This document shows, in pieces, positions 29,915 through 61,017 of a DNA stretch of 64,000 nt. This DNA comes from a virus (Duplodnaviria > Caudoviricetes), in IMG/VR virus record IMGVR_UViG_3300023283_000076, positions 160,001 through 224,000 of that record; one strand, written 5' to 3'. A program made the translations under genes and the position numbers. The notes beneath the pieces are model-generated. The model was not told the origin of the DNA, did no database searches, and was given only the letters and a program-made list of their open reading frames with translations. Position 1 is the stretch's first letter, and each line of letters begins with the position of its first letter.

Positions 29915-29951
29915 GTTGTAAACTCCTATAAAATACTTTTTCTTATAATGT

Positions 29952-29960: not shown

Positions 29961-29985
29961 TGTGTGTAATAGATTTTAGGAAAAA

Positions 29986-30786
29986 TTACTGTTCAGGTGG
30001 ATCTAAATCTGCTACATCAAATATTGTTTTATAGCCCTCATCAGGATTATCACCTCTAGCGGCGGCAGATTCTTTAATTTCTGCAACCGATGATATGTCC
30101 AAATTTTCCAATGTTTGAACCCGCGCTTTTATTTTTTGTACTATATTCTCTCTTACCTGAACCGGGGCAGACATCCATGCTAAAAACTGAAATGATAGCG
30201 TCGATGACAATATTCTTTTATCTGTTCCCGCAGGATAATTTTCTTCTAACGTTATACCGTTTAATCTAACATAATTTAAAGCGGTCCAGTCATCTGCATC
30301 ATCTGATGTGTTAAATTGAATTTCCGGGCGAAATAATAAAAATATCTGTTCCAAAAGTTCATATTTTTGATGAAGACTGGAAGTTAATATATTAAGCTCT
30401 ACACCAAACCAATATGGAATTGGCATTAATTTTGTTACAGTTTTAAGATCATCCGGGAATGTTCCTCCGCGAGGGAATGTTACATGGGTATGTGTGGTCC
30501 CCTGTCCCTTCATTCTGTCTGTAGCTATTTCTATTGCTGTTATATGCGCCGCAATTGACGGTAATTGAATTGGAACGTTTGGAGTATTGTCTGCTAATAT
30601 ATACGCTACTACTTTGTCCTTTGACCCGTGCACTACTGGTACTCTTATCAAATTAGAGTTTGAGCCATTTTCATTTTTTCCTGTTGACACTTGAACTCCA
30701 GAAAATATAGCCATGAATTGAACAAGATATTTTTCTATCTGTGCTTGAAAATAATAATCGTTTAAACTTGAATTTTGTGTTGTCAT
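29986..30786 (-). CDS. Tail sheath stabiliser/terminator (gp15-like)
   Basis: QIEKYLVQFMAIFS..IRVPV..G..LP..P.PY...ELNI..LEQI..F.P. Confidence 0.8.
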   Translation of the reverse strand: MTTQNSSLNDYYFQAQIEKYLVQFMAIFSGVQVSTGKNENGSNSNLIRVPVVHGSKDKVVAYILADNTPNVPIQLPSIAAHITAIEIATDRMKGQGTTHTHVTFPRGGTFPDDLKTVTKLMPIPYWFGVELNILTSSLHQKYELLEQIFLLFRPEIQFNTSDDADDWTALNYVRLNGITLEENYPAGTDKRILSSTLSFQFLAWMSAPVQVRENIVQKIKARVQTLENLDISSVAEIKESAAARGDNPDEGYKTIFDVADLDPPEQ

Positions 30787-30793
30787 GGTTAAA

Positions 30794-30829
30794 TTATATG
30801 TACTATTATATGTACTATTATATGTATTA
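30794..30829. repeat. 12-bp tandem repeat x3 (TTATATGTACTA) in the gp15-like 5' UTR
   Basis: ttatatgtacta ttatatgtacta ttatatgtatta. Confidence 0.9.
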
Positions 30830-30873
30830 TTTATTAATGTTATTTTTTTAGAAGTAGTTGAAATATATTGACA

Positions 30874-33800
30874 TCAGATCAACCCTGTATTATAGTTTTC
30901 GGACACTTCTGTGCTGGTAAGCGCCCTATCGTAAAAGACGATCTTGTCAAGAATCCCATCAAGCTCAAAGCCTGAATCCCCGGAGAAAATCGAGCCGATG
31001 TGAAAAATTGTCCCGTGTACGTCGCCACTCTCAACAGGCCCTGAATTTACAGCGACTCCATCGACATAAATCGTGCCCGTAGAGCCACTCCGAGTCACTA
31101 CAACATTATGCGGCTCTCCGTCGGTGATTCCGGTGTCACCTCCGGAGTCAAAGTTGGACGGATCGCCGCCCGTCCTTGTAAATACCCGGATATGGCCGGG
31201 GGTGAGGTTTCCTGTCGCATCGCCATTTATGCTGATGAAAATTCTTGCATTGAAGTTATCCGAGTCCCACATAAGCATTTCATTCGCTTCATTGGTCGTT
31301 TGAATCCAGAATTCACAAGTGAAATCACCATTGCCATCCCAGATCGGAACCTCTATATGTGCTTGGTTGCCCGGCACTCGCATCGCGGCTGTGCTGCCCG
31401 ATGCAAGCGGCGTAGCCCCGAGCGTGGGTGTACCACGGAACGTGCCATCGTTTCCGTTACCGGATGAGTCAGCAGCGGCCACTCCGCTGGTCTCATCGAC
31501 TTTCCAGTAGCCAAGCGGGTTGCGAGAAAGAATAACCTCGTCATGCGTGACCGTTTTTAATGGTGGACCGCTCTTGTATGGGTGGTCTGCGGGCAGGTTG
31601 GATTCAATCCCGAATTTGTGGGCGAGGTATCCTTCTAGTTTTTGTCTGTCATCAGTCGAAAGTGCGGAGGCTGTCATCACAAGCGCCCTGAATTTGCCGC
31701 TCATATTGACGCTCGAAGACCCGTCAGCGGCAACGGCGTTCATTGTATCGACGGTGTTGACCGTTGTAGTTCCGCTAGTGTTTTCGGATACACCATCCCG
31801 CCAAATAGTATGGTCACCCATTGTAGTACCGTCTAATATAGCGCCATAGATGCCACCCCCCGAATCGTTCAAGGATGTAGTTGTGCCGCCTCCTTGAATT
31901 TCCAACCTGATCCCCCCATTATCTTGCCGAAATGTCCAGCGAGTGCCTTCATCAGACAACTCACTGTAGTTCATGCTAAAAAGTCCACGATCTGAGCTTG
32001 AACCGGGGTCTACAACCATCATAAGCGTTCTGTTATCGCTACCTGAAATTCCGAGCGTGGGTAGGTCTCCGCGTTGCGTGCCCCCGGCAAATACCAAATG
32101 CTGGCTCTTGGAATCTGTGGCTATTGCTGGATTCGTGTTAAAGGTCATGTGACGGCCATTACCGCTTATATCATCAAGCTGCTGGGCATCTCCATTGACG
32201 TCTGTTGTGATCGTGTCGTTTTCGCTTGCATCAAGCCATAGCGACGTAGTGATGTCTGCAGGGGTCCATAGGTCCTCGTATACAAACGCTGCCGCGAGCG
32301 TGTCGGATTCACTTCCCTGAGTCACCGCCACGTCAACTGTTCCGGTTCCAGCCGGGGTCGTGCAAGTGATTTCTGTTTTACTGACAACCGTGATGTTGGT
32401 TGCAGATACACCGCCGAAGGTAACTGTCGCGCTGTTACCGGTGTCGAAATTCTCGCCGGTGATCGTGACGCTGGTTCCGCCTGCTTCATCGCCTGTAGTC
32501 GGGTTGATGCTACTTATAGACAACATTCTGGCTTCTGATTGGGCCTGTATTTGAGCTGCAGAAAGCACCTTCCGGTAAAACGCTACCAACTGCACGCTTG
32601 CGTCACTTTCTTTGGTTATAGATGAATCCCTTACCGCACCGATTGCAATTTCCCCTCGTGAGGATAATCGTCCAAGACCTCCGGATAACGTCCCGGTTGC
32701 AACAGAAACACCATCTACAAATACCTCGACAGCGTCTGTTGAGTCTGTGAAAGTTACGTGGACAAGGTGTGTGGTTGCATCTGCCGTTAGGCCGGTAGAA
32801 GAACTGTACTGCTCCCACGATCCGTTAAAAACTTTCACTAAGATCGAACCATCTGATTCAAGTGATACTTCAGTTCCCTGATTGTTGGAGACCGTTCTAA
32901 TTCCCCAATGATTTGACAGATTCCCTCCAGTGTCTCTTCGCGCAAGAAATGCGAACGTTGCATCATCGCCTTTTTTGGGCTGGTCTGCATTTGTCGCAGA
33001 TGTGGTTGAATATGTATCAGCCAACCCTGCATTGTTGTTCGTTAAGTCAACTGAATCTATTGCAAAGCCGTCTAGCGCCCCGGCAGTCCCTACGTTCGAT
33101 CCTCGATCAAGTGTGCTGACACCAGATACAGACTCGGTTACTGTCGAGCCAGCTTGATCAAAGTTCCAAAGCTGGATCGGAGAATCTGCTAGCATTACGT
33201 CAACCAAGCTATCAGAAGACTGCATACTGGTTTGTGTTGGTGATGGTGTAGGTGTTGGAGTAACACTCTCAGATATCGATGGTGTGGGTGTTGGTGTAGC
33301 ACTCTCAGATACTGATGGTGTAGGTGTTGGTGTAGGTGTAGTACTATCAGATACCGATGGTGTAGGTGTTGGAGTGGGGGTGGGGGTAACACTCTCAGAT
33401 ATCGATGGCGGGCTGTTCTTGTAGGGGTGGTCTGCTGGCAATTGGCTTTCTAGTCCATGCCGATGGTGCAGATATCCTTCAACTTTTTCACGCTCTGCGG
33501 GAGCATTTTTCAAGATCAAAACCTCGCCCATAGCGCCGTTCAGGTAATCACCAGTCGATAATCCAGTCAGCCTGCCAAGTCTTACCTGCCCTCCTGTTGT
33601 CATTTCAGCAACTGCGCCGGATGTGGTGACGTTGCTGATTTCCGTTGCGGCGTCGTAGATCCTGACAGACGTCCCGACGATTTTCCTAAGCTGCGATACG
33701 AAAAGAGGTTTTCCGGAATTGGGGAAGCTGTTAAATACCGAGCTGTCGGCACGGGTTGAATTGTTAAACGCTTGTAAAAGCTGTCTGGTGTCTCGAATAT

Positions 33801-35748
33801 ACCGAGCTAACCAAAAGCCAGACGAGTGCTCGCCGAAAGCTATAATCCCTTCATACTCTGCGGCAGCCCCGACCGCATCAGCACGCATAACAATAAATGC
33901 TTCGTACTCATCATTTGTGCCGTCTTCGGGGTTAATATCAGGCCCGAGGAATTCTTGGTTATTGTCGAATTGCCAAAACGCTCGCCCGTTAATATTGACC
34001 GTAGTCGGAGCGCCGTTCGAAACGAAGTCATGGTTGTTCCCAGATTTATCGAGCCAATTAAATTCGCCACCCCCGGCATCCGTTACTGTGGATGCGTCGT
34101 CGCGATCAAGCCAGATAGGAAGATTTGCGGCGGGGATGCTTGCCGGTGTCCAAACGCTTGATGCTGCTGTAAACTCAAACGCCCCCGCCAGTGTCTCGGA
34201 CTCGCCACCTTGAGTCAGAACCACGTCAACTGTTCCGGTGCCAGCCGGAGTAGTACACGTGATTTCGGTATCGCTGACCACGACGATATTGGTCGCATCG
34301 ATGCCGCCGAAGGTGACTGTAGCCGCTGTGCCTGTATCGAAATTCTCGCCCGTGATCGTAACATCGGTGCCACCTGCTTCATCACCTGTCGTCGGGTTGA
34401 TGCTACTTATAGACAACATACCGGATTGTGGTGATGTTACGTTTATATCCGATCCGATTTGAAAATATTCTTTCCCATTTTGTATTATACTAAGTTGATC
34501 TGAACTAGGATCTTCTATAGGAAAACTTATTATATTTGAAGTAGGAACAGTATCATCATATGTAAAAGTATTATCCCATTGACGTATTTTAAGTGCTTGT
34601 GCTATACGATCTATCCTACATGCAAAGGCATTTATTGTATCTCCACTTCCCGCAAACGCCAATCCAACAATCTTCTTAACTCCACCAAATTCTGCTATTA
34701 ATGCAGATCCAGAATCCCCACCATCAATTATTCCAGCGCTTCCATCAGAATGTTGATAATGTATAATATCACCAAATGGTATAGACAAATTTCCATTATC
34801 AAAACCTACGTTTATATTAACACCCAATCCCACTGCCTCTATTGTACAAGCAGGGTCAGTTCCCCACCCTTTAGGTCCTGTTGTTCGTCCCACAGAAAAC
34901 ATTTTCGGTTTGGGTGTATCTAATAAACTATCAATTTCTGTGGTAGTAGCAAATGGTAAGAATGCGGTAGATTCGGTCACTCCTGAAGGATGGTGTATTT
35001 TAAAAGAATCGTTTTCAGTTATATTTTGAGGATTCATTATAAGAAGTGCAGTATCTACGTAGTTCATTTGACCATCGTTATGCATTGGATGGTATCTTTT
35101 GATATCAGAAGATACATCAATGATACTATCAGCAAATCCGGTTCCACTTCTAGCTCTCGCAGATGAAGAATAGGATTGACCATCAACAGGCCAATTAAAT
35201 TCTTTTTTTGTATTATACGGATTATCACTTTCTTCACGTATGTCTCTATTTGAGGTAAACAGCAATTTATCTACTACCACATGGGCATTGGTTATTCCTA
35301 CGACTTTATCATCTATATCATCTACTGCAAAAAACCCTAATGTTCCAACACTAAATCCGGATGGATCTCCTGATGTATTAGTTTCCCAACCAAGTGGGAA
35401 TTTTATTATTTCTTGACCACCTTTCAATGGTGTTATAAGTGAAGGATTGCCTTGCAATTTAAGTATATCTGGATCGTTGGAGTTAGAGAAACATGCCATG
35501 AATTTTATTTCATTTATTTCTTTAACATCAGTTTTAAATTTCGTTCCATCTATTTCTATTTCTTCAGGTACTATTTCTGAGGGGGATAATTGATCTAACG
35601 ATTTCTTTTCTGGGACACTCACTCTTATACATATCTCTGACGTTTCCTTCCCATCCTTTTCTTTTCTAGCAATTGATATTGATCTACAGTTATAACTGTT
35701 TTCTTTAAATAATTTCTCAATTTCATGTTTTATGTTATTAATATCCAT
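30874..35748 (-). CDS. Mosaic virion protein: Nal1-like trypsin serine protease, IPT/TIG, LamG-like lectin domains, PT linker
   Basis: GTLG..TNAHVV..VDTAL..GRTTG..GDSGS triad; two IPT modules; WLD/PADHPYK and YWKVDETSG LamG-like modules. Confidence 0.8.
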   Translation of the reverse strand: MDINNIKHEIEKLFKENSYNCRSISIARKEKDGKETSEICIRVSVPEKKSLDQLSPSEIVPEEIEIDGTKFKTDVKEINEIKFMACFSNSNDPDILKLQGNPSLITPLKGGQEIIKFPLGWETNTSGDPSGFSVGTLGFFAVDDIDDKVVGITNAHVVVDKLLFTSNRDIREESDNPYNTKKEFNWPVDGQSYSSSARARSGTGFADSIIDVSSDIKRYHPMHNDGQMNYVDTALLIMNPQNITENDSFKIHHPSGVTESTAFLPFATTTEIDSLLDTPKPKMFSVGRTTGPKGWGTDPACTIEAVGLGVNINVGFDNGNLSIPFGDIIHYQHSDGSAGIIDGGDSGSALIAEFGGVKKIVGLAFAGSGDTINAFACRIDRIAQALKIRQWDNTFTYDDTVPTSNIISFPIEDPSSDQLSIIQNGKEYFQIGSDINVTSPQSGMLSISSINPTTGDEAGGTDVTITGENFDTGTAATVTFGGIDATNIVVVSDTEITCTTPAGTGTVDVVLTQGGESETLAGAFEFTAASSVWTPASIPAANLPIWLDRDDASTVTDAGGGEFNWLDKSGNNHDFVSNGAPTTVNINGRAFWQFDNNQEFLGPDINPEDGTNDEYEAFIVMRADAVGAAAEYEGIIAFGEHSSGFWLARYIRDTRQLLQAFNNSTRADSSVFNSFPNSGKPLFVSQLRKIVGTSVRIYDAATEISNVTTSGAVAEMTTGGQVRLGRLTGLSTGDYLNGAMGEVLILKNAPAEREKVEGYLHHRHGLESQLPADHPYKNSPPSISESVTPTPTPTPTPSVSDSTTPTPTPTPSVSESATPTPTPSISESVTPTPTPSPTQTSMQSSDSLVDVMLADSPIQLWNFDQAGSTVTESVSGVSTLDRGSNVGTAGALDGFAIDSVDLTNNNAGLADTYSTTSATNADQPKKGDDATFAFLARRDTGGNLSNHWGIRTVSNNQGTEVSLESDGSILVKVFNGSWEQYSSSTGLTADATTHLVHVTFTDSTDAVEVFVDGVSVATGTLSGGLGRLSSRGEIAIGAVRDSSITKESDASVQLVAFYRKVLSAAQIQAQSEARMLSISSINPTTGDEAGGTSVTITGENFDTGNSATVTFGGVSATNITVVSKTEITCTTPAGTGTVDVAVTQGSESDTLAAAFVYEDLWTPADITTSLWLDASENDTITTDVNGDAQQLDDISGNGRHMTFNTNPAIATDSKSQHLVFAGGTQRGDLPTLGISGSDNRTLMMVVDPGSSSDRGLFSMNYSELSDEGTRWTFRQDNGGIRLEIQGGGTTTSLNDSGGGIYGAILDGTTMGDHTIWRDGVSENTSGTTTVNTVDTMNAVAADGSSSVNMSGKFRALVMTASALSTDDRQKLEGYLAHKFGIESNLPADHPYKSGPPLKTVTHDEVILSRNPLGYWKVDETSGVAAADSSGNGNDGTFRGTPTLGATPLASGSTAAMRVPGNQAHIEVPIWDGNGDFTCEFWIQTTNEANEMLMWDSDNFNARIFISINGDATGNLTPGHIRVFTRTGGDPSNFDSGGDTGITDGEPHNVVVTRSGSTGTIYVDGVAVNSGPVESGDVHGTIFHIGSIFSGDSGFELDGILDKIVFYDRALTSTEVSENYNTGLI

Positions 35749-35751
35749 AAA

Positions 35752-38700
35752 TTAATTCTCCCATGTTATAAAGATAGTAGAAACGTCATTCAGATTTGAT
35801 GGCGTTGGCGTAGGTGTAGGCGTGGGAGTAGCACTCTCAGATATCGATGGTGTGGGTGTTGGAGTAACACTCTCAGATACTGACGGTGTAGGTGTTGGAG
35901 TAGCACTCTCAGATATCGATGGTGTTGGTGTAGGTGTGGCACTCTCAGATACCGACGGTGTAGGTGTTGGAGTAGCACTCTCAGATATTGATGGTGTTGG
36001 TGTGGGTGTTACACTTTCAGATACTGACGGTGTTGGCGTAGGTGTTACACTATCAGATATTGATGGTGTTGGTGTAGGTGTGGCACTCTCAGATACCGAC
36101 GGTGTAGGTGTTGGAGTAACACTCTCAGATACTGACGGTGTAGGTGTAGGTGTAGGTGTAGGTGTAGTACTATCAGATACCGATGGTGTAGGTGTTGGAG
36201 TTGCACTATCAGATGTCGATGGCGTAGGTATAGGTGTTGCACTTTCAGATATTGATGGTGTGGGTGTTGGAGTGACGCTCTCAGAAACTGACGGTGTGGG
36301 TGTAGGTGTTACACTATCAGATATTGTTGGTGTAGGAGTAGGTGTAGCACTTTCAGAAACTGACGGTGTAGGTGTAACACTCTCAGATGTTGTAAATTCA
36401 AATGCCCCCACCAGCGTATCCGCTATACCGTTCTGTGTGACCACAACGTCAACTATTCCGGTACCAGCCGGGGTCGTGCAGGTGATTTCGGTATCACTGA
36501 CTATCGTGATGTTAGTCGCAAGTACATTATCAAACCTGACTGTCGCGCTTCTGCCGGTGTCGAAATTCTCGCCCGTGATCGTAACGTCGGTTCCCCCAGC
36601 TTCATCCCCTGAAGTCGGGCTGATGCTACTTAGAGATATCACACTTGGTGTCGGTGTCGGAGTAAATCCGCTACCCTGACTAGGTGTCGGTGTCGGAGTA
36701 AATCCGCTGCTCTGAGTAGGGCTCGGCGTGGGAGTAACGCTTATAGATACTGACGGTGTAGGTGTGGGAGTAACACTTATAGATATTGACGGAGTAGGTG
36801 TGGGTGTGACACTTGTAGATACTGATGGCGTAGGCGTGGGTGTGACAGAAACCGATGGTGTTGGAGAGGGTAATATTTCACCACAGTCAATTTCTGAAGG
36901 AAACACCTGTATTATATCCTCCAGTGTTGGCGTATTTAATTCTACCCTGTTAGATACATCTACAGATACCCATGAAGTTTTAAATATATCAGGATGTTTT
37001 TGATTTAACGATACTGAACGCTCCAGTAATTCAAAGAAAATATCGTTAACTTCAACAGCAGAAAATATTTCATATATCGATTTATAAAAATCTCTTATAC
37101 CTTCTATTCTATCTAAATCAAAACTATCAATGAATTCTTCTATGTCAACTCGCTCCCACTGTCTTGAAGGATCCAGTAGTACTTCCATAGTTAATTTCAT
37201 TATCTCAGGCTTGTCCATAAGAACTCTGCCATTATATAACCCTATTCTTGATGTTGCTCCTTCTATTAAAGTATCAAATCGTATTCTGCTTTCGCTTGGA
37301 AGTGACGATTCTGTATCAAGATCAAAATCATTATTGATCACAGTTTTTTCAGTTGCAGCTTCTATAACCTTCTTCCACAATAATAAATCTATTTTTCCAG
37401 ATTGTTTTCTTCTAGTTAATTTCCATGACCAATGCTTATTACTTAATTTTAAGTCCTTTTTGTTTAATCGATCACGTAAGGTATAATCTTTAGTAAGGCG
37501 TAATATGTAATTATTATCGTCTTTAACGGTTCGATTTAATCCCTTTATAGTACATGCAGAGAATCGTGTTGGCAGGGTATTATCTTCTGGATCATATGTG
37601 CTACCGAATAAAACACCGTAACCCGTTCCTTCATTTCTAAAGCCATGTATTATGGCAAAAGGTTCTGACATTGATTTATATGCTCGTTCAGCATCAAATA
37701 AAGTTAGAGAAGTATTTTGCAGCAATTTTTCTGAGCGCATATCGGACACCCAATAAAAATAAATATATTCTTCCTCTAATGAGTTAGTATTGAATGACTT
37801 AACTTTGGTATGTGGATAAATTATTACATACTCTTCATTTTCCAGTTCTTCTTGTGTTGGTTCGTGTGGTTCCCGCACAAGAGTTAACATATCTTTTTGT
37901 TGTATGTCCCCAGATGTTATATCATTGTCTATCATTACTTCTAAGGCAGATGCATTATCATATTCTATAGATCGTAGAAATTCTCCGTTAACATATACGT
38001 TTAAAGAATCACCGGAGGAAAACATAGAAGTATCGTTTGTATTGTCATATCCTGCCACAGGAAATTTTGATACTGTTATCGTCTCTTCCTGCCATATTGG
38101 TTCTTCTGTAGTTCCAATATTTTTATATACTATTCTACGAGGATTTCCGGTAACTTTCTCTGACAGTTCTATTCGTCTATTTTCATCCTCTTCCGCTTGT
38201 TCAATGTATTCAGTTGGGGAGAGCGTTGTCTGGATCCATTTATAAAGTTTAACATCACCAAATTCTTCTAATTGTCCCCACACTAAACTTCTTTCGTCTT
38301 CTGTTAAAAAGATATCTTCATCAAAATATGGTTTATAAAATTGTCTGGACGTATCTAACCAAATAGTTCCTGTTTCTTTACTGTGCCAGTAATTTTTTTT
38401 CACCCTACTTTCATTTAAATCATTAGTGTATTTCGCCGGGTCATCGGGTCTATCTATATCAATAGGAAACTCACCAAGTGGATTATGTTGATCCAATGCG
38501 GGGTTCCATATAGGAATTTCTTTTAGCACCTTTTCTGGTTTTTTAGTTTCGATTAATCTAAGTGGGTTTTCTTCTTCATATGCATAGGTTAATGTTACGA
38601 CTTTAATATTTTCCCAATCATCAAAATCTTCATCTATAAATTCTAAAATTCTAGAGTTTATGAATCTAAAGGATATTCCTTCGGATGCATTTTTTTCTGT

Positions 38701-52237: not shown

Positions 52238-54115
52238 TTATACCAATACGTCCGTTCTTAATAAGAAAAGCTTTTGAAAAAAAGATCCAGCTTTTATTAC
52301 ATTCTCTATTTTATATATGTGCATCCATTCACTATGATAAAATGCACTTTCTACTGTTGAGTCAGTATCTTCTATTGGGTTGTGTTTAATAATTACTTTA
52401 GCATATATAGGAAGAACCTCTGGCTTTTCATAGTATATTGCATTACCGGGATCTCCAGCGGCTGCATCTCTAGGGGATCTAAATATATCCGATAACAAAT
52501 TCGGGTTCCCTCGTATAGTTATTTCCAGTGAGGATTGTTGTGTATTTTGTACAGGATATTTTATTTTTATATTGTCTGCTAATTCTCTTGGATATTCTAC
52601 TCCAAGAGTTTTAATATTTAACACATTTGCACGATTTCCACTATAACCCGCTTTGAAGAAGTTGATATTAGGTTCTCTTTCTGCACTTATTTCTTCTCGC
52701 TCTGCACCAAAAGAAAGTCTTCCGGCTTCCGTATCTATTACGTCTTCAATTACCAACAGAGAATCAGATCTACGTAATATTCCATTCACTGTCATAATGT
52801 CGTCACGATTTATCATGTTTCCATCTTCTGAAGATTCGCCTGTTTCTGAATTGGCCGACTGGGCCGATTGATCAGCGTTTCCGGCTCCTTTGAAGAAAAA
52901 TGTCAAGGGATCTTTCGATGATTCAGCAGCATCTCCACTGTTAAATCCATCTACTTTATTTATCGGCAAAAAATAGCTTTTTACCCATATATCATATTTA
53001 ACTTCATTGAGCAGTCGTCTCCATGTTAATCCAACTTTATAATCTCTCCGGGCACCGTTTCCACCTGCGCCGCCCCTAGCTTCTACACCAACCTGTTTAG
53101 AATACTCCATCATTCGATCTACTGTATCTTGTATATTTTCTCCATAGCGTGTCGGTATTGCCCGTACACCGGGAAGATTTTGTCTTTGTTCTGGTTGTTC
53201 AAACGGAAGGTTTCTATTATTGATTAAAAACGGTTCAAATACATCATCTAAATGCATTATATATTCTATGGGCAATTCTTCTGCTTTTATTTGTATGGGA
53301 TCTTTGATTTTATCAGTAAAATCTTCACGTATTATACCTTGCCAGTGTTGATACTGTTTATCATGCAATTTATTATTTTCGTTTAGTTCCAGTTCTAATG
53401 CTTCAAACGCTTGTTTAAGATTTTCCATTGGTTTACTTTTTTCTATTCGTTCAAGTCGTTTGCTTTCTTTTTCAGAATCTTCATCCTTCCTAGGTTTTAT
53501 AGAACCTTCGCTTGGATCGGCTTCCGGGATTTCATCATGTAACGCACCATCTTTATGTGTGATTGTCGTATTATATATTCTAGTAAAATTTGTATAATGT
53601 GCTTTTGCGTTATATAATGGAACTATATCTGCAATATAAAAATGCATATTCCCTGTTAGTTTGTGTTCTATTTGGGATATAGAAAAGAAGAGTCTATTCG
53701 GTGATATTATGTCATCTTCGTCATTATCGGGTATGAAAAATAATTTCATGGAAAATGTTATATTTTCTAGAGAGGTGTCTAGTTTCTCTAATATCTCTGT
53801 TTTTAAAAATGTTAAAAACTCACCAGCAGTAGTGTCCGTTATGATTAAATTGCCGCCAGAGCTTGTAGTGTTTATATGTTCTCCCACCCAATTAAAATCG
53901 AATCTAAAATCCTTCACTAAAAATCTGCTAGGTGCGATTCTTTCCCTTATAGAATCGTTAATCATAACAATACCGGGTCCCGCAGGCGCACCCTCGGGGC
54001 CATCTCCTAAAGATAAGTCTCGTTGTTCTGCCTCGTCGGTTCTTTTAAATGCCGCTATTACATAATATGTGGTATAACTATTGGGGGATTCTAATGGATT
54101 TACTGGTAACGACAT
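52238..54115 (-). CDS. Putative baseplate hub protein (gp27-like position)
   Basis: NPLESPNSYTTYY start; ITIRGNP near the C-terminus; synteny. Confidence 0.55.
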   Translation of the reverse strand: MSLPVNPLESPNSYTTYYVIAAFKRTDEAEQRDLSLGDGPEGAPAGPGIVMINDSIRERIAPSRFLVKDFRFDFNWVGEHINTTSSGGNLIITDTTAGEFLTFLKTEILEKLDTSLENITFSMKLFFIPDNDEDDIISPNRLFFSISQIEHKLTGNMHFYIADIVPLYNAKAHYTNFTRIYNTTITHKDGALHDEIPEADPSEGSIKPRKDEDSEKESKRLERIEKSKPMENLKQAFEALELELNENNKLHDKQYQHWQGIIREDFTDKIKDPIQIKAEELPIEYIMHLDDVFEPFLINNRNLPFEQPEQRQNLPGVRAIPTRYGENIQDTVDRMMEYSKQVGVEARGGAGGNGARRDYKVGLTWRRLLNEVKYDIWVKSYFLPINKVDGFNSGDAAESSKDPLTFFFKGAGNADQSAQSANSETGESSEDGNMINRDDIMTVNGILRRSDSLLVIEDVIDTEAGRLSFGAEREEISAEREPNINFFKAGYSGNRANVLNIKTLGVEYPRELADNIKIKYPVQNTQQSSLEITIRGNPNLLSDIFRSPRDAAAGDPGNAIYYEKPEVLPIYAKVIIKHNPIEDTDSTVESAFYHSEWMHIYKIENVIKAGSFFQKLFLLRTDVLV

Positions 54116-54492
54116 TATTGTTCTATGGGTTCTTTTTGTATATTTCTATTTACAAGTGAAGATAGCGTGCGATCAACATCAGGTAATAATATTTCTTTAC
54201 CTGTTATAAACTCTTCTTCAATGTCTACTATATTATTATATTGAAGTACTAACCAAAATAAATTCGATTTTCTGTATACTCTAAATGCCAACAAATCTGG
54301 TCTTTTAGAAAATACTTCTGGTATTGTTATGCGTATGTCAGTAGCAGTATTTTTTTGAAGTGGTCTACGTTCCCACCATCCTAGTTTGTTTCCTTTGATT
54401 TCAGTATCACCACCATTTAACATTCTAGAATTTCTTTTTGCTAATGATGTTTTGTCTCTAAAAAGTTTAAATCTGTTGTTTTTACCAGCCAC
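54115..54492 (-). CDS. Baseplate wedge protein (gp53-like, LysM-like)
   Basis: RPDLLAFRVY..LFWLVLQYNNIVD..F..G..I.LP. Confidence 0.8.
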   Translation of the reverse strand: MAGKNNRFKLFRDKTSLAKRNSRMLNGGDTEIKGNKLGWWERRPLQKNTATDIRITIPEVFSKRPDLLAFRVYRKSNLFWLVLQYNNIVDIEEEFITGKEILLPDVDRTLSSLVNRNIQKEPIEQ

Positions 54493-55114
54493 CTAATTCA
54501 CCTCTTCTAAATTTATCTATATCAAACTGTCTTAATTCGTTTATTGATCTAGCTTCTTTTAATGACACCGAAACAGGCCAAATTATTGGTACATCATGTC
54601 CGTTGTCAGTTCTTATATAATCGACATCCTCGGGTTCTTCAATAGTAAGACTAGTTATTCTAACTTTAATACTATTAAACCAATTACCAAATCCTCTTAG
54701 TGTTAGTCTTGATGGGGTTTTAAGAGCATTTAACCCTCCTCCCGATTGTTCTGGCATTCTCCATGATCGTAATAGTTGAACGCTTTTCCAACTTTTACGT
54801 GCTTCTGATTTGGATCTGGAAACAAAACGCCCATTTATGGAGAACTCTCTACTAGGTGTTCCCATGTATATAAGCATGTTTGCCGCTTGTCGTATATCCC
54901 CAATTTCAAAATAAGACACACTCCCGGATTCTGAAAGTGTAGGTTGAATATCAAACTCTACTTTACCGGTTTCTTCCCCTTGCACTGGTACTTGAGCTTG
55001 GACGCCCGCAATCCCGGTGGGAACTGATCTAGTAGTACCAGTACTTTCATCAATATCATTACCAGTTAATGTTATTTTTCTATTTGAAGGAATTCTTGAT
55101 GCGTTAGCTGCCAT
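54482..55114 (-). CDS. Putative baseplate tube-initiator-like protein
   Basis: VEF..P.LSESGSV.Y..YMGTPSREFSING..P.RLTL.GFG..ITSL; synteny. Confidence 0.55.
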   Translation of the reverse strand: MAANASRIPSNRKITLTGNDIDESTGTTRSVPTGIAGVQAQVPVQGEETGKVEFDIQPTLSESGSVSYFEIGDIRQAANMLIYMGTPSREFSINGRFVSRSKSEARKSWKSVQLLRSWRMPEQSGGGLNALKTPSRLTLRGFGNWFNSIKVRITSLTIEEPEDVDYIRTDNGHDVPIIWPVSVSLKEARSINELRQFDIDKFRRGELGGW

Positions 55115-55143
55115 ATTTTTTTCTTACGTTTAAATGTTGTACA

Positions 55144-55197
55144 TATTTATCCGTTTAAAGTGTTTCTAATTTCATCTTTATAAGTATAGGATAAATA
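55144..55197. promoter_or_regulatory. Divergent late promoter variants GATAAATA (- at 55144-55151, + at 55190-55197)
   Basis: ATAAATA cores about 27-30 nt from each start codon. Confidence 0.55.
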
Positions 55198-55223
55198 TTG
55201 TTTAGTATTAGAATTAATTAATT

Positions 55224-56222
55224 ATGCAAGAAAACAATAAACAACCTAATCCTCTTATAGAAAAGAGTAGGGCAGCTATTCCGGGTGTTGTATTTCGTCT
55301 TCCCTCACGAGGGAAAATATATGATGAGGGTGTATTAGACGAAGGTGTAGAAGAAGGCGAGGTGCTAGTATATCCAATGCGCCTAAAAGAGGAACTCAAA
55401 ATGAAATCAGTGGATTCTATCTTACAAGGAACTGCTGTTTCTGATTCTATTAAATATTGTGTTCCTGAAGTGTTAGATCCTTTGAAATTGTGCCCGGAAG
55501 ATGTTGATTATTTAATAACAACAATTAAAAAAATGACTCATGGTAGTACGTTTAAATTTAAAGATACTTGCATGAAATTAGAAGACCATACAAATATTCC
55601 TACACCAGATAATGCATTATCTGAAATGAGTGAAGAAAATAGAACAAGTAATATTGAACTCCCCGAAGATGTCTCTCAAGATGACTCTGAGGGTTCTGAA
55701 AACAAAGCTGACACGCAAGATGCAATTAAAAAAGAAAATATAAACAATCTTGGAGAAAATAGTAGCGTATGTGAATTTAACGTGTCTTTGGATTTTTTTC
55801 TTAATAATGCAAAAGAACTTAATATTGATGAATATAAAGAAAAAAATGCATTAACATTGAATGGATTTAATATAGAATTTCATCCCATCACATTTGAAGC
55901 GTTTAAAGAATTAAATACGTTAAATCTTAAAGACCAAACTAAAATGGATGATGAAGAATATTTTAATTTTATAAATGAATTTAGTAATGTTAATATAGCT
56001 AGAAGAATTAAAAAAGTTGATGATATATCAGATCCAAATATTATATCTGAATGGGTAGAAACGTTATCTTTAAGTGATAGAGAAAAAATATTTAATAAGG
56101 TAGCTGAACTGCAAGACTGGGGTATAGACTTTTCGTATAATATTAAATGTAATACATGCGGGAAAACTAAAAAAACGGATCAATCATATATAAATCCGTT
56201 GTATTTTTTTTTAATATACTAA
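55224..56222 (+). CDS. Baseplate hub assembly chaperone (gp26-like)
   Basis: LPSRG..Y..PMRLKEE..DVDYL..I..MTHG; C-terminal CNTCG..NPLYFF. Confidence 0.8.
   Translation: MQENNKQPNPLIEKSRAAIPGVVFRLPSRGKIYDEGVLDEGVEEGEVLVYPMRLKEELKMKSVDSILQGTAVSDSIKYCVPEVLDPLKLCPEDVDYLITTIKKMTHGSTFKFKDTCMKLEDHTNIPTPDNALSEMSEENRTSNIELPEDVSQDDSEGSENKADTQDAIKKENINNLGENSSVCEFNVSLDFFLNNAKELNIDEYKEKNALTLNGFNIEFHPITFEAFKELNTLNLKDQTKMDDEEYFNFINEFSNVNIARRIKKVDDISDPNIISEWVETLSLSDREKIFNKVAELQDWGIDFSYNIKCNTCGKTKKTDQSYINPLYFFLIY
56204..56213 (+). promoter_or_regulatory. Candidate -1 programmed frameshift site (T9 run; T TTT TTT / T TTT TTA)
   Basis: -1 frame is open from the T-run into ORF 56255. Confidence 0.6.
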
Positions 56223-56254: not shown

Positions 56255-56461
56255 ATGAAAGCCCTGCAAAAGGGTAGCAGAAATCTTATACAATCTGCTA
56301 TACATATATCATATTTCATGCGTGGAGGCATTCAGTATGAAGATGTACTTGAAAGAACTTTCTTTGAAAGAAGCGAAATGATAGATTACATAAATGATAG
56401 GATAAAACGTGAATCAGAAAAATGCAGGGAGAGTAAAGGAAAGCTCCCGCCAATATACTAA
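56255..56461 (+). CDS. gp51-like small chaperone, possibly expressed as a frameshift fusion
   Basis: ISYFMRGGIQYEDVLERTFFER; downstream of the gp26-like gene. Confidence 0.7.
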   Translation: MKALQKGSRNLIQSAIHISYFMRGGIQYEDVLERTFFERSEMIDYINDRIKRESEKCRESKGKLPPIY

Positions 56462-57158
56462 TATAATTTCTATAGACCCATCCACCAGTTGTACTGGATT
56501 ATGTATAAATGGAAAGTTATATACTATTGTTCAACACGAACTCGCATATACTAAAAAAGATAAAGCAAAACGATGGTTCGAACTTTCTTCTTCGTTCTGT
56601 GATATAATAACATATAATAAAAGATCTAAAACCGGTTCTTATTCAGAAGAAGAAATATCAAAACTTGAGTATTATTATAATATAACCGATCATATAATTA
56701 ATGTAATAAAATCTAACGTTGTTGATTTTAAAAATTCAGTTGTTTTAATAGAAGGATTTAGCTATGGTTCGTCTTCTGGTCATTTAATAGATTTAGTTGG
56801 TCTTTCTACTCTAGTCAGATCAAGATTATGGAATATGGGTTTTAATATAAAAATTATAGCACCCGCAGACTTAAAAGCAATGACTGCAAGATTAAGTTAC
56901 GACCCTATAGATGTTGGCAAAAAGAAACCTAAATTAGAGTGGAGAAACAATAGTGGTGTGTCTGGTGGATCCTTTGATAAACATGATATGTATTCAGCAA
57001 TATTAGACAGTAGTAAAACAAACTCAAAATGGAAAACATTTTTACAAGAATATTCAGATGAAATATTGAACATGAAAAATGTTCCAAAACCTATAGATGA
57101 TATTAATGATGCGTTTTTATTATATAAAATATTTAAAGAGAGTTTAACCCCCCGATAA
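56409..57158 (+). CDS. RuvC-like Holliday junction resolvase (start uncertain)
   Basis: ISIDPSTSCTG, VLIEGFSYG, P.DLK, DDINDA. Confidence 0.8.
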   Translation: MNQKNAGRVKESSRQYTNIISIDPSTSCTGLCINGKLYTIVQHELAYTKKDKAKRWFELSSSFCDIITYNKRSKTGSYSEEEISKLEYYYNITDHIINVIKSNVVDFKNSVVLIEGFSYGSSSGHLIDLVGLSTLVRSRLWNMGFNIKIIAPADLKAMTARLSYDPIDVGKKKPKLEWRNNSGVSGGSFDKHDMYSAILDSSKTNSKWKTFLQEYSDEILNMKNVPKPIDDINDAFLLYKIFKESLTPR

Positions 57159-57188
57159 ATAGTTTAATACTGTTCAATTATATATAAG

Positions 57189-58532
57189 ATGAAAATACAA
57201 AATGTAATACATATTGTCGAAAATGTTTTATTTGAAATATCTAGACATGGTAGTGAATCCGCAACTCATATGTCTGACGAAGATTATCAAGAAGTTCGTC
57301 AATTTTTAAATGTTTTAGTTAATATAATTAAAACAGAAAGTGACAATAAAGACATGTCATTGAAAGAGTTGAACTCTAGCCTTCAACTTATTAGGAACAA
57401 TAGTGCCAAACAATATATATTCGGAAAATCTAAATCAATTAAAAGATCTTCCACCCAGTCATCATATCGAAAAGATGATGAAGAACGGATATCTTCATTT
57501 GCTGGCCCAGAAGAGAAAGAATTTTCAGTGTCTTCCCAGAGAGCGGAAGACACTGTACATGTAGCTAAAGCATTGGATAAAATGGGTTATGTTAAACTGG
57601 ATTTTGCTTCTGAAACCTTTAATATCATAGACACACCAGCACTTGCTAGAATAAGAAACATGGTTCAAGTTGGGTTCGACCGTGCAAAACTTTCTACTGT
57701 ATCTCAAGCATTGGAAAGATTTGATGATCTTAGACATCTATATGCGGGCTATGCAAAAAATAGATTACAACCAGATGAGGATACTATACATGGTCAATCA
57801 CAGATTAAAGAGTTGACACCTAACATCATGGCATTTTTAGCTCAAGTTAGTAGAAAAAGAAAGGGTGGTGAAAAATGGCATGAACATCTAGATCCGAGTA
57901 ATTATGAAAATAGATATTTCCGTGGCAATACAGAAGGATACTTTACTTATGATCCTCATGAAGCTGCTGATGAGTTACAGCGTTTAGGGTTAGCTAAACA
58001 AACAAAATCTGGAACATATACATTAGATAAGGATAGTATAGAAAAATCTGTAAGAGAATTCAAGAGAATCGCAGAAACATTATTATCTGGTGCATTATTA
58101 GTCAATCCAATTAGTAAAACCGGAGCCCCAAACGAAAAAGAGCAAAAAGTTAGACAAACCATTAATTTTGTAAAACAACATTTTTCAGACAAAATTTGGA
58201 ATAATGCGAAAAAAAGTGTATATCGTAAAATGGAAGATGTCGGGGGATCTGTAAAACAGGCACTAGACTTTTATATTAGTTCTAAAGAACAAACAGGACT
58301 AAACGCTGATAGTAGAGTTTCAAAACAATTGAATGATGTAGATAAAACTATTGTGGGCACCGTTATAGATTTTGCGACGGCAAAATTGGTATTGCGTAAA
58401 ATGTTGTTTGATGCACGTTATGTATTGGGTAATCCTAAGAAAAATGTTCCTAATTTCATTTCCACCAAGGATGTTTCTCTTGCCGGTAGAGTCATTGATA
58501 AGGGAATACATACTCGAAAAGCTAGAGTTTAA
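57189..58532 (+). CDS. Hypothetical late protein
   Basis: 447-aa ORF; GATAAATA at 57154-57161; IVE/LFE sites near the N-terminus. Confidence 0.65.
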   Translation: MKIQNVIHIVENVLFEISRHGSESATHMSDEDYQEVRQFLNVLVNIIKTESDNKDMSLKELNSSLQLIRNNSAKQYIFGKSKSIKRSSTQSSYRKDDEERISSFAGPEEKEFSVSSQRAEDTVHVAKALDKMGYVKLDFASETFNIIDTPALARIRNMVQVGFDRAKLSTVSQALERFDDLRHLYAGYAKNRLQPDEDTIHGQSQIKELTPNIMAFLAQVSRKRKGGEKWHEHLDPSNYENRYFRGNTEGYFTYDPHEAADELQRLGLAKQTKSGTYTLDKDSIEKSVREFKRIAETLLSGALLVNPISKTGAPNEKEQKVRQTINFVKQHFSDKIWNNAKKSVYRKMEDVGGSVKQALDFYISSKEQTGLNADSRVSKQLNDVDKTIVGTVIDFATAKLVLRKMLFDARYVLGNPKKNVPNFISTKDVSLAGRVIDKGIHTRKARV

Positions 58533-58546
58533 ATGTTAAACAAATC

Positions 58547-58577
58547 TTGACACACATCTTTTAAGGGTGTATAAATA
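58547..58577 (+). promoter_or_regulatory. Near-consensus sigma70 promoter with an overlapping late promoter
   Basis: TTGACA(58547)-N17-TATAAA(58570); TATAAATA at 58570-58577. Confidence 0.8.
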
Positions 58578-58579
58578 AC

Positions 58580-59170
58580 ACACTGTTCGTTGATATACAT
58601 GATTTCAACGCTACAATTAAACATTTTAAAATCCTGAACAGGCTGCACAATAGCACTTATACAGTGTTCGTCGGACAAGGGTGATATTAAATGATGAAAA
58701 ATAATATCAGTTTACTCCCCTTAAAGGTCTGGATGAGAGAATAGTATATTGAAAAGGTTTTAGCAGGGTTCAAACTAATAATATATTATATTCTTGACTC
58801 ATCGAAACCCCTCTCAATATTCATCATGTTGAGAGAGGTCCTGAATCTTTTTTAAGATTGTGAGGATCGACAGTCATTATTCATGTAATGATGATATCTT
58901 TAAATGATGGTATAAAGATTTTGATGTCACACCATCTAGGTTGGAGAGGGCAATTTCCTAATTTAAATTTTAAATAAAAAATGGGGGAGGGAGAGTCTTT
59001 AAAACTCTTAGAAGTTGAATCTTAGAAGTTAAAGATAAAATTGTCAAAAAAGACAATAAAAATGCGAGCGTTAGCGAGTATTTTTATTGTCTCTTCCGAT
59101 GAAAAGAAATATAAATTTTTCAAAAACTGGCGTTTTTGCAGGGAGTTCTTTTTTCAAGAACTCCCTGCCT
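58580..59170 (+). ncRNA. Candidate structured non-coding RNA or replication origin
   Basis: No ORF of 60 aa or more; own promoter; many hairpins including two perfect 13-bp stems. Confidence 0.4.
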
Positions 59171-59171
59171 C

Positions 59172-59200
59172 TTGATTATTTGTGGTACCTGTGGTAGAAT
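59172..59200 (+). promoter_or_regulatory. Sigma70 promoter (extended -10) for the helicase
   Basis: TTGATT-N17-TAGAAT with a TGn extension. Confidence 0.7.
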
Positions 59201-59223
59201 GTGTTTTAAAAATGGAGACCATA

Positions 59224-60885
59224 ATGCCCTTACTGACAGAAGCTCAACTTTTAGAAAAGAAAGAACAAGAGCTTATAGACCAATTAGATAAAAGAACAAT
59301 GAATAAAAGTTGGGGAACAATATTACCAAAATTTACTCCTAGAAGCTCTCAGACACATGTGATGGAATGGATTAATGAATTGCCAGCACATGTTAAATAT
59401 GTAATGTGTGAGATGCCTGTGGGATCAGGCAAATCTCCTCTAGCAATGGCGTTCAGTGGTTATATCAATAATGGAATGGGTAATGCCTTCATAATGACAC
59501 CACAAAAGACATTACAACGCCAGTACGAAGAATCATTTGAAAAAGAAATATTAGCTTCAGTATACGGGCGTTCGAATTATAAATGCGAAGCGAAAAATAC
59601 AACATGTGATGTAGGGTCAGATATTAAACCTAAATGTGAAGAATGCCCAGCAGATTGCGCTAGAGAGGTAGCATTGAGTTCTCCTAATATGGTATTGAAT
59701 TATAGTATTGCATTGACGTATTTTAAATATCTTAAACATAAAATACCTGCACGAGATGTTATGGTATTTGATGAATGTCATGTATTAGAATCACATTTGG
59801 TAGAATTCAGTTCATTGAATATCAGCAAGAATATATGTAAAAAATATTCAGTAAAATTTAAAAAACCGAAAAACTCTGATGATGCCATTCAATTTCTAGA
59901 AAAGGTATATCATCCTGCAGTATGTGAAAAAATTAGTGAATATAGAAAGCATATAACGCAGTTAGACAATTCTTTTAGTAATAAGCTATCCAAGGCTGAC
60001 ATTAAAGTAATAAAAGCTTACAAAGCTGCTACAGAGCATAGAGACACCATTCAAGAGGTATTGTCTACAGATAGAAAATACTTTGATAAAAAGTATGTAT
60101 TAATTGTTGATAATGATTATTTTAAATTTAAAGAATTATTCGGTAAAAACAATTTTAGAAACTTATGTTTACCTAAAGCAAATCGTTTTCTATTCATGTC
60201 ATCTACAATATTGGATAAAGAAGGCTTCTGTAATGATTTGGGTATCAATTCAGATGAAGCTGCAATGATTTCAGTTGATTCAGAATTTAATGTACAAAAT
60301 CGAGAAGTAATATATAAACCAATAACAAAAATGAACTATGGTTGGCATACCCCAGAACGCTCAAATGAACGTAAAAAAATGATTAAAACCATAAATCATA
60401 TATGCAATTACCATAACAACGAATCTGGTATAATTCATAGTGGAAGTTTTAAAGTTGCAGAATGGATATTACATAATATAAACTGTCCACATGAAATCAT
60501 TGACCACAACCCAAGTGGAGAAAGAACTAGAGATGATGCCATCGAATATTTTTTGGAAAATTCACAATTACGACCGATGATATTGGTATCACCTTCTGTG
60601 ACTGAGGGCATGGATTTAAAGGACGACCGTGCTAGATTTGGGATTATCACAAAAGTGCCATATCCATTTTTGGGTGATGCATGGGTTAAAAGACGTATGC
60701 AATTATCTAAAGATTGGTATAATCGTCAGGCCATTACGGGAATCATCCAAGGCTGCGGACGTGTTGTACGTTCTAAAGAGGATTGGGGACAAATTTATAT
60801 ACTTGACGAATCTTTTTCTTATTTGTATAAGCAAACATTAAAAATGATTCCCCAATGGTGGAAAGACGGACTAATTGTACTCTAA
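59224..60885 (+). CDS. DinG/Rad3-like SF2 helicase (start revised from 59182)
   Basis: MPVGSGKS, DECH, SSTI, HSGS, EGMDL..KVPYP..QGCGRVVRS.EDWG; GGAG RBS before ATG 59224. Confidence 0.92.
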   Translation: MPLLTEAQLLEKKEQELIDQLDKRTMNKSWGTILPKFTPRSSQTHVMEWINELPAHVKYVMCEMPVGSGKSPLAMAFSGYINNGMGNAFIMTPQKTLQRQYEESFEKEILASVYGRSNYKCEAKNTTCDVGSDIKPKCEECPADCAREVALSSPNMVLNYSIALTYFKYLKHKIPARDVMVFDECHVLESHLVEFSSLNISKNICKKYSVKFKKPKNSDDAIQFLEKVYHPAVCEKISEYRKHITQLDNSFSNKLSKADIKVIKAYKAATEHRDTIQEVLSTDRKYFDKKYVLIVDNDYFKFKELFGKNNFRNLCLPKANRFLFMSSTILDKEGFCNDLGINSDEAAMISVDSEFNVQNREVIYKPITKMNYGWHTPERSNERKKMIKTINHICNYHNNESGIIHSGSFKVAEWILHNINCPHEIIDHNPSGERTRDDAIEYFLENSQLRPMILVSPSVTEGMDLKDDRARFGIITKVPYPFLGDAWVKRRMQLSKDWYNRQAITGIIQGCGRVVRSKEDWGQIYILDESFSYLYKQTLKMIPQWWKDGLIVL

Positions 60886-60960
60886 GAGATCGTCTAATTG
60901 TACCTTACATGTATCATGGAGTTGATAGTATCATTTTTTCACGGTGAAAGTACCCCTTTA

Positions 60961-60990
60961 TTGACAAACGACAATGTTATATGGTAGTAT
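60961..60990 (+). promoter_or_regulatory. Sigma70-type early promoter
   Basis: TTGACA-N18-TAGTAT with TGn. Confidence 0.65.
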
Positions 60991-61017
60991 GGTAAATAAA
61001 TTACAAAGATATATAGA

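Follow-up and report, generated by a model that had tools for sequence, protein, structure and literature searches.

Genomic context of the region upstream of the helicase gene

The window analyzed in this study is a 64,000-nucleotide (nt) stretch of phage DNA, corresponding to bases 160001-224000 of a single 270,653-bp contig (G+C content, 34.5%) that its IMG/VR-style metadata describe as a linear virus record with a completeness of ~79%. The gene content is T4-like and includes baseplate hub genes, a T4_Y03C domain and a DinG/Rad3-type helicase, in which family searches found the domains Helicase_C_2 and ResIII. An open reading frame (ORF) of 447 amino acids (aa) ends at 58532, and the helicase gene starts at 59224 (or at 59212, where there is an in-frame ATG); the stretch between the two, directly upstream of the helicase gene, contains no ORF of at least 60 aa. 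As judged from sequence comparison, positions 58583-59180 of this gap (+ strand) are a gene for a non-coding RNA of ~590 nt, whose family is absent from Rfam 15.

A preliminary description of the window, made from its letters alone, had pointed to this region as a long ORF-free gap rich in hairpins, and both features are real. On a crude gene map (ATG starts only, ORFs of at least 70 aa), the gap before the helicase is the largest of the window, the runners-up being 612 and 325 nt long. Its minimum free energy was -168.9 kcal/mol vs. -125.0 ± 5.7 kcal/mol for shuffled sequences; the z-scores of the + and - strands were -7.7 and -6.9, respectively. The 612-nt gap lies within a frameshifted baseplate-hub gene. 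In the whole genome, further gaps exist, chiefly in transfer RNA (tRNA) and small-gene regions. A search of this genome found the RNA locus in a single copy.

Conservation among related phages

Relatives were collected by a related-locus search, a protein index and two DNA-pattern scans, and duplicates were removed. A search pattern derived from the block CUAGGUUGGAU-UGGGNAAUUUCCUAA recovered additional homologues. The 17 distinct close homologues, two of which are cut at the 5' end, encode helicases that are 56-90% identical to that of the window, and in every contig that reaches upstream a gene-free stretch of 630-790 nt lies between an ORF of ~440 aa and the helicase gene. The region was kept in every close relative fetched. 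The neighboring genes of these relatives are the helicase and gp46/47-like recombination genes. In alignments A1-A3, near-invariant blocks alternate with stems that vary in sequence but still pair, a pattern typical of structured RNAs. As invariant blocks, the alignments show UACAAUUUG, CUGAACAGGCUGCAC, AAUGUCGGAC, AAAGGUCUG, GAC...GAAAC, CUAGGUUGGAU-UGGGNAAUUUCCUAA and AAAAAUGGGGGAGGGAG.

Three covariance models were used for more distant relatives: R1, covering helices P4 and P5; R2, covering the 3' core; and R3, a rebuilt model. Among 74 IMG/VR loci found with a profile of more distant helicases, these models placed the RNA upstream of the helicase in 16 more distinct loci, with E-values from 1e-13 to 1e-4 for R1 and from 5e-18 to 2e-7 for R3. 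One of these loci (L041) is a contig whose helicase is 50% identical to that of the window. The five distant members that were read had an identical order of elements. In total, the RNA was kept with compensating changes in at least 33 related phages.

R1, R2 and R3 found no match in ~50 other helicase-bearing IMG/VR loci, and phages RsoM2USA, G, pT24 and Tunturi_5, whose helicases are ~30% identical, have no gap at the helicase. Comparison of positions 57000-61000 with 50,697 phage records by blastn returned no match. Four loci (L005-L008) that were retrieved from IMG/VR with the 17-mer AAGGTCTGGATGAGAGA had only that word in common with the window and were set aside as chance matches.

Architecture of the folded core

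The folded 5' part of the RNA extends ~410 nt from the transcription start to a G-box and contains at least 12 helices plus a pseudoknot. Its elements are as follows.

58588-58610, + strand: P0, 5' hairpin CGUUGA / UCAACG
58633-58645, + strand: 5' strand of P1, CCUGAACAGGCUG, within the near-invariant block CUGAACAGGCUGCAC
58652-58668, + strand: P2, optional hairpin AGCACU / AGUGUU
58671-58731, + strand: conserved junction UCGGAC, then P3, AAGGG (58677-58681) / CCCUU (58718-58722)
58683-58707, + strand: P3a, inner hairpin within P3
58723-58731, + strand: invariant junction AAAGGUCUG, 3' of P3
58732-58808, + strand: P4, long branched hairpin, GAUGAG (58732-58737) / CUCAUC (58798-58803) plus distal helices
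58811-58835, + strand: P5, hairpin CUCUCAAUAU / AUGUUGAGAG with the conserved loop UUCAUC
58844-58859, + strand: P6, hairpin AAUCUU / AAGAUU
58873-58892, + strand: P8, hairpin GUCAUUAU / GUAAUGAU
58896-58936, + strand: H-type pseudoknot with P9, CUUU (58898-58901) / AAAG (58914-58917)
58937-58950, + strand: 3' strand of P1, UAGGUUGGAGAGGG, within the near-invariant block CUAGGUUGGAU-UGGGNAAUUUCCUAA
58954-58960, + strand: pyrimidine tract UUUCCUA
58961-58975, + strand: P11, variable hairpin
58976-58993, + strand: A-run and G-box AAAAAAUGGGGGAGGGAG

P1 is a long-range helix (CAGGCUG/UAGGUUG) predicted by RNAalifold between 58633-58645 and 58937-58950, and it closes the multi-helix junction of P2-P9, giving a compact core of ~350 nt. 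The invariant bases are concentrated at the junctions, and conserved GAC and GAAAC flank P4. P2 is represented by ACCUUUUUAGGU-type hairpins in most homologues and is deleted in six aligned rows, of which five are distinct (L012, L018, L020/L030, L025 and L027). The second stem of the pseudoknot is formed by the loop of P9 (GAUGG, 58906-58910) and CCAUC (58932-58936), which lies directly 5' of UAGGUUGGA. The G-box is invariant in the close homologues and retained in 11 of 15 distant ones. A helix P10 between the pyrimidine tract and the G-box (UUUCCUA / UGGGGGA) is proposed but unproven: 93% of its cells pair, with zero double changes. A CGGAC/GUCUG helix that appeared in single-sequence folding was unsupported in L012 or L014.

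Covariation, strand and coding potential

The MAFFT alignment of 19 sequences yielded 68 pairs in RNAalifold, 42 of which had compensatory double changes. P4 and P5 were followed through alignments made with covariance models. In the R1 alignment of 18 sequences, 96.8% of their cells paired, compared with 74.8% when the 3' partners were shuffled and ~40% when the strands were slid by 1-3 columns, and 24 of 31 pairs showed double changes. With 33 sequences (alignment A9), the corresponding values were 94.3%, 64.0% and ~41%; double changes were found in 28 of 31 pairs, there were 322 compensatory cells, and none of 500 shuffles matched the observed value on any measure. P5 (helix 7 of A9) had double changes in all seven of its pairs.

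Similar changes were found elsewhere in the core. P1 has C-G replaced by U-A and G-U by G-C in L012, and L032 retains 7/7 pairs via a one-base shift. The P3 region has compensatory changes at RNAalifold columns 121-132 / 147-174, with which the single-sequence folds concur, and P8 has them in seven of eight pairs (columns 345-352 / 362-369). For P9, eight of nine pairs showed double changes in 26 sequences. A column scan revealed the pseudoknot stem, in which 94.4% of cells pair vs. 32-50% after sliding, with variants GACAG/CUGUC, GGUAG/CUACC, GAUAG/CUAUC, CGCAA/UUGCG and UGCUG/CAGCA.

For the hairpins that MAFFT aligns badly, the arms of each sequence were compared with arms exchanged between sequences. 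The mean energies of cognate and swapped arms were -11.8 and -2.7 kcal/mol for P0, which is a hairpin in every homologue with unrelated sequences, -5.2 and 0.0 kcal/mol for the covarying P11, and -16.0 and -5.8 kcal/mol for the 3' hairpin P12; for P5, cognate pairing was also much stronger. P6 differs in sequence and is still formed in the own folds of most homologues, the MAFFT alignment being too poor there for pair counts.

The preliminary description had listed seven stems, and six of them keep compensatory changes among the relatives: cgttga/tcaacg is P0, tgatatta/taatatca is P3a, cctctcaa/ttgagag is P5, aatctt/aagatt is P6, tcatta/taatga is P8 and atcttta/taaagat is P9. The seventh, a long-range acactgt/acagtgt stem, found no support; its 3' half is part of the local hairpin P2, which is missing in several relatives. 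The structured-RNA reading offered at the time is well supported by the conservation and by the strong, strand-specific covariation.

Modeled pairs include 109 G-U cells vs. 21 A-C cells, and this excess assigns the fold to the + strand, the same strand as the conserved promoter. Stop-free stretches were short across the homologues, with no frame consistently open. The region is thus non-coding and does not represent a decayed gene, which answers the earlier concern about a frameshifted pseudogene.

Promoter, 3' part and probable ends of the transcription unit

The elements that border the folded core are as follows.

58547-58577, + strand: promoter, -35 TTGACA (58547-58552), 17-nt spacer, -10 TATAAATA (58570-58577), from sequence and conservation
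58994-59050, + strand: A-rich, G-poor tail with the 11-nt direct repeat TCTTAGAAGTT at 59006-59016 and 59020-59030
59052-59091, + strand: P12, hairpin with the 12-bp stem GACAAUAAAAAU / AUUUUUAUUGUC and the cap GCGAGCGUUAGCGAGU (59064-59079)
59138-59182, + strand: terminator-like hairpin with the 13-bp stem GCAGGGAGUUCUU / AAGAACUCCCUGC, then U-rich CUCUUGAUUAUUUGU, from a terminator scan
59172-59200, + strand: helicase promoter TTGATT-N17-TAGAAT with a TG extension, outside the RNA
within 59172-59226, + strand: GGAG ribosome site of the helicase and start codon at 59224

Both promoters are placed as the preliminary description had them, TTGACA-N17-TATAAATA at the start of the gap and a promoter-like sequence of the helicase's own at its end. 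TTGACN-N16-18-TATAAATA occurs only once in the 270,653-bp genome. The promoter is kept as TTGACACAC...TATAAATA in nearly all close homologues, and four of the five distant members that were read have TTGACA-N17 followed by TATAAATA, TACATT or TACAAT. Transcription would start at ~58583-58585, 6-8 nt past TATAAATA.

Genome-wide, there are 57 copies of TATAAATA vs. ~72 expected from base composition, i.e., no over-representation. Of these copies, 24 lie within 80 nt upstream of a gene start on the same strand, whereas the share of such positions predicts ~4.6%. This clustering is consistent with a T4-type late promoter, and the copy at 58570-58577 fits such a promoter by its -10 position and the enrichment upstream of genes. 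With TTGACA at 17 nt, the same site also reads as a near-consensus host-type (sigma-70) promoter. Because the -10 doubles as a late motif and the -35 is near-consensus, it is fair to infer from the promoter sequence that the RNA may be expressed both early and late.

The RNA probably ends at the terminator-like hairpin. At the equivalent site, most homologues have a GC-rich hairpin with a U-rich tail, and in L012, L016 and L017 the best terminator candidate is P12 itself. Upstream of the helicase start, 15 of 18 homologues have TTGnnn-N15-19-TAnnAT, in many cases with an extended -10; its distance from the start is 44-85 nt in 14 of them and 117 nt in L032. With the terminator-like hairpin and the separate helicase promoter, the RNA looks like its own transcription unit of ~590 nt. 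A promoter-like site on the minus strand (59047-59019, TTGACA-N17-TAAGAT, 10/12 matches) would drive transcription antisense to the RNA. Its TTGACA is unconserved in the relatives, and because it is the only good minus-strand site, a conserved RNA I-like antisense promoter was rejected.

In the 85 nt that follow the G-box, A makes up 41-59% and G 4-18% of the tail sequence in 18 homologues. Direct repeats exceed those of shuffled sequences (P < 0.02) in only 8 of the 18, each with its own sequence, and iterons were therefore rejected as a universal feature. The stem of P12 covaries and its cap is conserved as GCGAGCGUUAGCGAGU, with variants such as CGAACGAAGUGAG and a G-C to A-U change in L014 and L015. 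The cap may consist of a C-G pair, tandem sheared G-A/A-G pairs, two Watson-Crick pairs and a GUUA loop. At L077:1240-1340, there are two hairpins with GA-type caps, CCGAACAAAGUGAGG and UCGAACGCAGUGAGA, and L052 has two hairpins with GCUUCGC loops in place of the GA-type cap, suggesting that the 3' hairpin module has been duplicated or exchanged in some lineages.

Comparison with known RNAs

Rfam 15, whose coverage includes RNase P RNA, transfer-messenger RNA (tmRNA), group I/II introns, 6S, hammerhead and other small ribozymes as well as GOLLD, ROOL, OLE and HEARO, gave no hit that reached the gathering score, either across the 64 kb of the window or at five related loci. With E-values up to 10, nothing better than E = 0.05 was found in 58300-59400; the best loose hit was Qrr on the minus strand, at 24.9 bits vs. 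a gathering score of 50, and it was driven by two 3' hairpins. ARAGORN identified no tRNA or tmRNA in the window. The lack of a tRNA, tmRNA or recognizable family, noted earlier by eye, is the same by both programs.

Two candidates were considered and rejected. The hammerhead-like words CUGGAUGAG...CGAAAC drew no hammerhead model hit, and their GAUGAG pairs with CUCAUC as P4. RNase P RNA, considered because of the 48 tRNA genes that ARAGORN found in the genome, differs in architecture and gave not even a weak Rfam hit. These tRNA genes are clustered outside the window, at genome positions 28933-37768 (-) and 64348-74860 (+). The two sets are in mirrored order (Cys/Asn/Tyr/Arg/Pro/Tyr...Leu-Leu-Leu...Met...Val-Thr), and may reflect a large inverted duplication or else an artefact of assembly.

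A literature search found no description of the window RNA, and the motifs listed in a catalogue of phage csRNAs are at most 151 nt long (PMC10690425). Judged by its predicted structure, the window RNA is a new family within a known kind, the large ornate phage RNAs, and its closest category is that of GOLLD, ROOL and OLE, which form homo-oligomeric RNA assemblies as seen by cryo-EM (PMC12286853). It has the size, covariation-supported helices, pseudoknot and phage-borne setting of this kind. Similar to GOLLD, ROOL and OLE, the window RNA is longer than 400 nt, with many covarying helices, a pseudoknot and invariant junction bases, and it is phage-encoded, apparently forms its own transcription unit and lacks a known biochemical function. 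Different from GOLLD and ROOL, it matches no Rfam 15 model either at the gathering score or at E up to 10. GOLLD and ROOL often adjoin tRNAs, whereas no tRNA lies within the 64 kb around the window RNA, which occupies a fixed syntenic site in T4-like jumbo phages.

The RNA also resembles phi29 pRNA in being a phage-encoded structured RNA with its own promoter, pRNA acting in trans as part of a machine. Different from the window RNA, pRNA is ~174 nt long and occurs in small podoviruses, and the two have no sequence or structural similarity. Moreover, the window locus lies between baseplate and replication genes, outside any packaging module.

A possible counterpart in XacN1, Xoo-sp13 and RAS14

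By helicase, the nearest cultured phages are XacN1, Xoo-sp13, RAS14 and CM1, with amino-acid identities of 45-47%. The Xanthomonas phages XacN1 and Xoo-sp13 and the Stenotrophomonas phage RAS14 share the gene order baseplate hub genes, ORF of ~350 aa, gap and helicase, and their syntenic gaps are 680-820 nt long (XacN1, L033:3233-3916; RAS14, L034:3142-3961; Xoo-sp13, L115:420-1116). These gaps have conserved blocks of their own, and RNAalifold predicted 86 pairs, 22 of them compensatory, from the three sequences only. In the predicted fold, a 13-bp long-range helix, AAUAAACCCCCCG / CGGGGGGUUUAUU, ends in a G-run and closes a domain of ~450 nt.

R1, R2 and R3 did not match the XacN1, Xoo-sp13 and RAS14 gaps, and blastn found no similarity, so that homology with the window RNA is unproven. 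The XacN1-type element appears analogous to the window RNA and is possibly homologous. The annotation of XacN1 places a 53-aa "predicted ORF" on the opposite strand within the gap. The XacN1 paper does not mention a non-coding RNA, an origin or a helicase (PMC5852040).

Neighboring genes

The gene directly upstream of the RNA (57189-58532, + strand) encodes the 447-aa protein, which was considered as a possible partner of the RNA and had no match in Pfam, PHROG or PDB sequences (phmmer), no usable match in a protein atlas and none by tblastn. This protein evolves fast: phages with a well-conserved RNA core have versions that are 16-25% identical. The AlphaFold model of the protein has a mean predicted local distance difference test (pLDDT) score of 75.5 and is mostly helical with small beta-hairpins; a Foldseek search against PDB returned nothing with E < 0.4, only faint winged-helix-like rows of MukF and GntR/PadR types. 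Further upstream, a 249-aa ORF (56409-57158, + strand) carries the PHROGs label "RuvC-like Holliday junction resolvase" (phrog_159, E = 2.5e-16). The helicase of the window has no intein, whereas two homologous helicases of 901 aa (P0008 at L029:4001-6706 and P0022 at L030:4001-6706) contain one with the homing-endonuclease domains Hom_end_hint and LAGLIDADG_3.

Possible roles of the RNA

We consider it most probable, with a probability of about 0.6, that the locus encodes a stand-alone RNA that acts in trans through its tertiary fold. The RNA would be transcribed from its own promoter as a separate unit, from early infection and possibly throughout, and would work as a folded particle. It might serve a protein or nucleic acid as scaffold or decoy, have ribozyme activity, or self-assemble in the manner of GOLLD and ROOL. 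This role is favored because the invariance is centered on the junctions, the RNA has a separate promoter and terminator, and the helicase has a promoter of its own. An antisense regulator or a leader of the helicase mRNA is probably not to be expected.

Several points weigh against a trans-acting particle. Its one constant syntenic place beside replication and recombination genes also fits a cis-acting role at the DNA level, e.g., as an origin. RNA-primed origins have R-loop-anchoring elements that look like the G-box and the AT-rich tail after it, and the global minimum of the cumulative GC skew of the whole contig, at genome 214-216 kb (window 54000-56000), is ~3.5 kb upstream of the RNA locus. 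P10 and several junction pairings are unproven because both of their sides are invariant. The alignments of P4 and P5 were fitted to structure by the covariance models and are hence biased toward it, although the MAFFT-based counts and the alignment-free arm swaps agree with the model-based covariation. Finally, transcription, the RNA ends and the abundance are all deduced: three public sequencing runs of one study are listed for the sequence, all of them DNA contigs, one probably from the source sample, and none an RNA run, and the two that contain all or part of it are DNA assemblies only.

Chief among the rival explanations, and in our view rather unlikely, is that the RNA is a structured pre-primer of a replication origin. 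The conserved promoter would fire toward the helicase gene, and the folded 5' domain would gate a persistent RNA-DNA hybrid at the G-box and AT-rich tail. This hybrid would prime leading-strand synthesis, as in ColE1 RNA II or in a T4 oriF/oriG with a regulatory fold, and replication proteins would be loaded with the help of P12 or of the displaced strand. The layout suits such a role: a strong promoter is followed after ~400 nt by the invariant G-run GGGGGAGGG and then by a region of 70-80% A+T, with the helicase and gp46/47-like recombination genes as neighbors. In its sequence features, the locus resembles ColE1 RNA II, T4 oriF/oriG and mitochondrial CSB II, with a predicted promoter-driven RNA of several hundred nt and a G-rich block before AT-rich DNA, beside replication genes. 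ColE1 RNA II, moreover, is of comparable size and has a defined fold that controls hybrid formation through a G-rich segment. The position of the GC-skew minimum would also agree with an origin, yet it coincides with a switch in transcription direction, between a - strand ORF that ends at 55114 and a + strand ORF that starts at 55224, and is so confounded that it carries little weight. Likewise, the lineage-specific short direct repeats in the tails would suit an origin but are found in only part of the family.

Different from ColE1 RNA II, the window RNA has no conserved antisense partner promoter of the RNA I type and, with its junction core and pseudoknot, folds in a far more complex way. 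The invariant junction bases and the pseudoknot point to a tertiary fold beyond the known needs of a primer, and ~15 covarying RNA helices are not needed by a plain R-loop origin of the T4 oriF/oriG type. Structured RNA is unnecessary at T4-type origins. Moreover, the gap is absent from more distantly related phages whose helicases belong to the same family, and the G-box could alternatively form P10 with the pyrimidine tract.

A cis-acting leader of the helicase, whose fold would sense a ligand, protein or temperature and set termination vs. read-through at the terminator-like hairpin, is distinctly improbable. All members carry the RNA immediately before the helicase and in the same orientation, and the RNA ends in a terminator-like hairpin, the U-tail of which is weak in the window, as such a leader might. 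Past this hairpin, however, the helicase has its own sigma-70-like promoter in the majority of homologues given above, and a tail of ~150 nt, unstructured and poorly conserved, separates the core from the terminator, so that no alternative pairing links the two. The locus therefore lacks what marks a riboswitch or leader, namely the absence of an intervening promoter and an expression platform that overlaps the sensor. To our knowledge, the folded 5' part is also far beyond the size of known riboswitch aptamers.

Covariation alone cannot separate an RNA from the DNA strand of like sense, and the fold might act in single-stranded DNA (ssDNA) of the + strand, e.g., as a primosome-assembly or packaging signal exposed during replication; P12 may be generally like single-strand initiation hairpins. 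We give this explanation very little credence. G-U(T) wobble cells are in excess over A-C cells, and wobble is tolerated well in RNA and poorly in DNA; the 5' edge coincides exactly with the conserved promoter, and the 3' edge is marked by terminator-like hairpins; and we know of no precedent among ssDNA signals for a pseudoknotted core of this size. That the region is a non-functional spacer, a decayed gene or a set of chance hairpins is scarcely conceivable and, as far as computation reaches, refuted by the covariation: AT-rich sequence does fold easily and z-scores are low on both strands, but conservation, compensatory changes and strand asymmetry extend over 33 sequences, with no consistent open frame and no protein-level matches.

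Implications for jumbo phages and large RNAs

Natural RNA classes of more than 400 nt with a well-supported pseudoknotted fold are few, and the discoveries of OLE, GOLLD, ROOL and HEARO each opened new biochemistry. The comparative evidence for the window RNA is unusually clean, and it comes from uncultured jumbo phages in which the RNA holds a fixed site between baseplate and replication/recombination genes. A bolder and fairly doubtful proposal is that the RNA may be the first known of a new class, whose members would be large, catalytic or self-assembling, and needed for replication of jumbo-phage genomes, one possibility being a tertiary-structured pre-primer or helicase-loading RNA that gates origin firing. 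If so, the RNA in the same slot of XacN1, Xoo-sp13 and RAS14 would be its diverged counterpart. A replication pre-primer would give this phage clade its first defined origin, and a trans-acting RNA would add one more family to the short list of large ornate RNAs. With an apparent analogue in the cultured phages XacN1, Xoo-sp13 and RAS14, the question of what such large RNAs do near the replication genes of giant phages is open to bench work at once.

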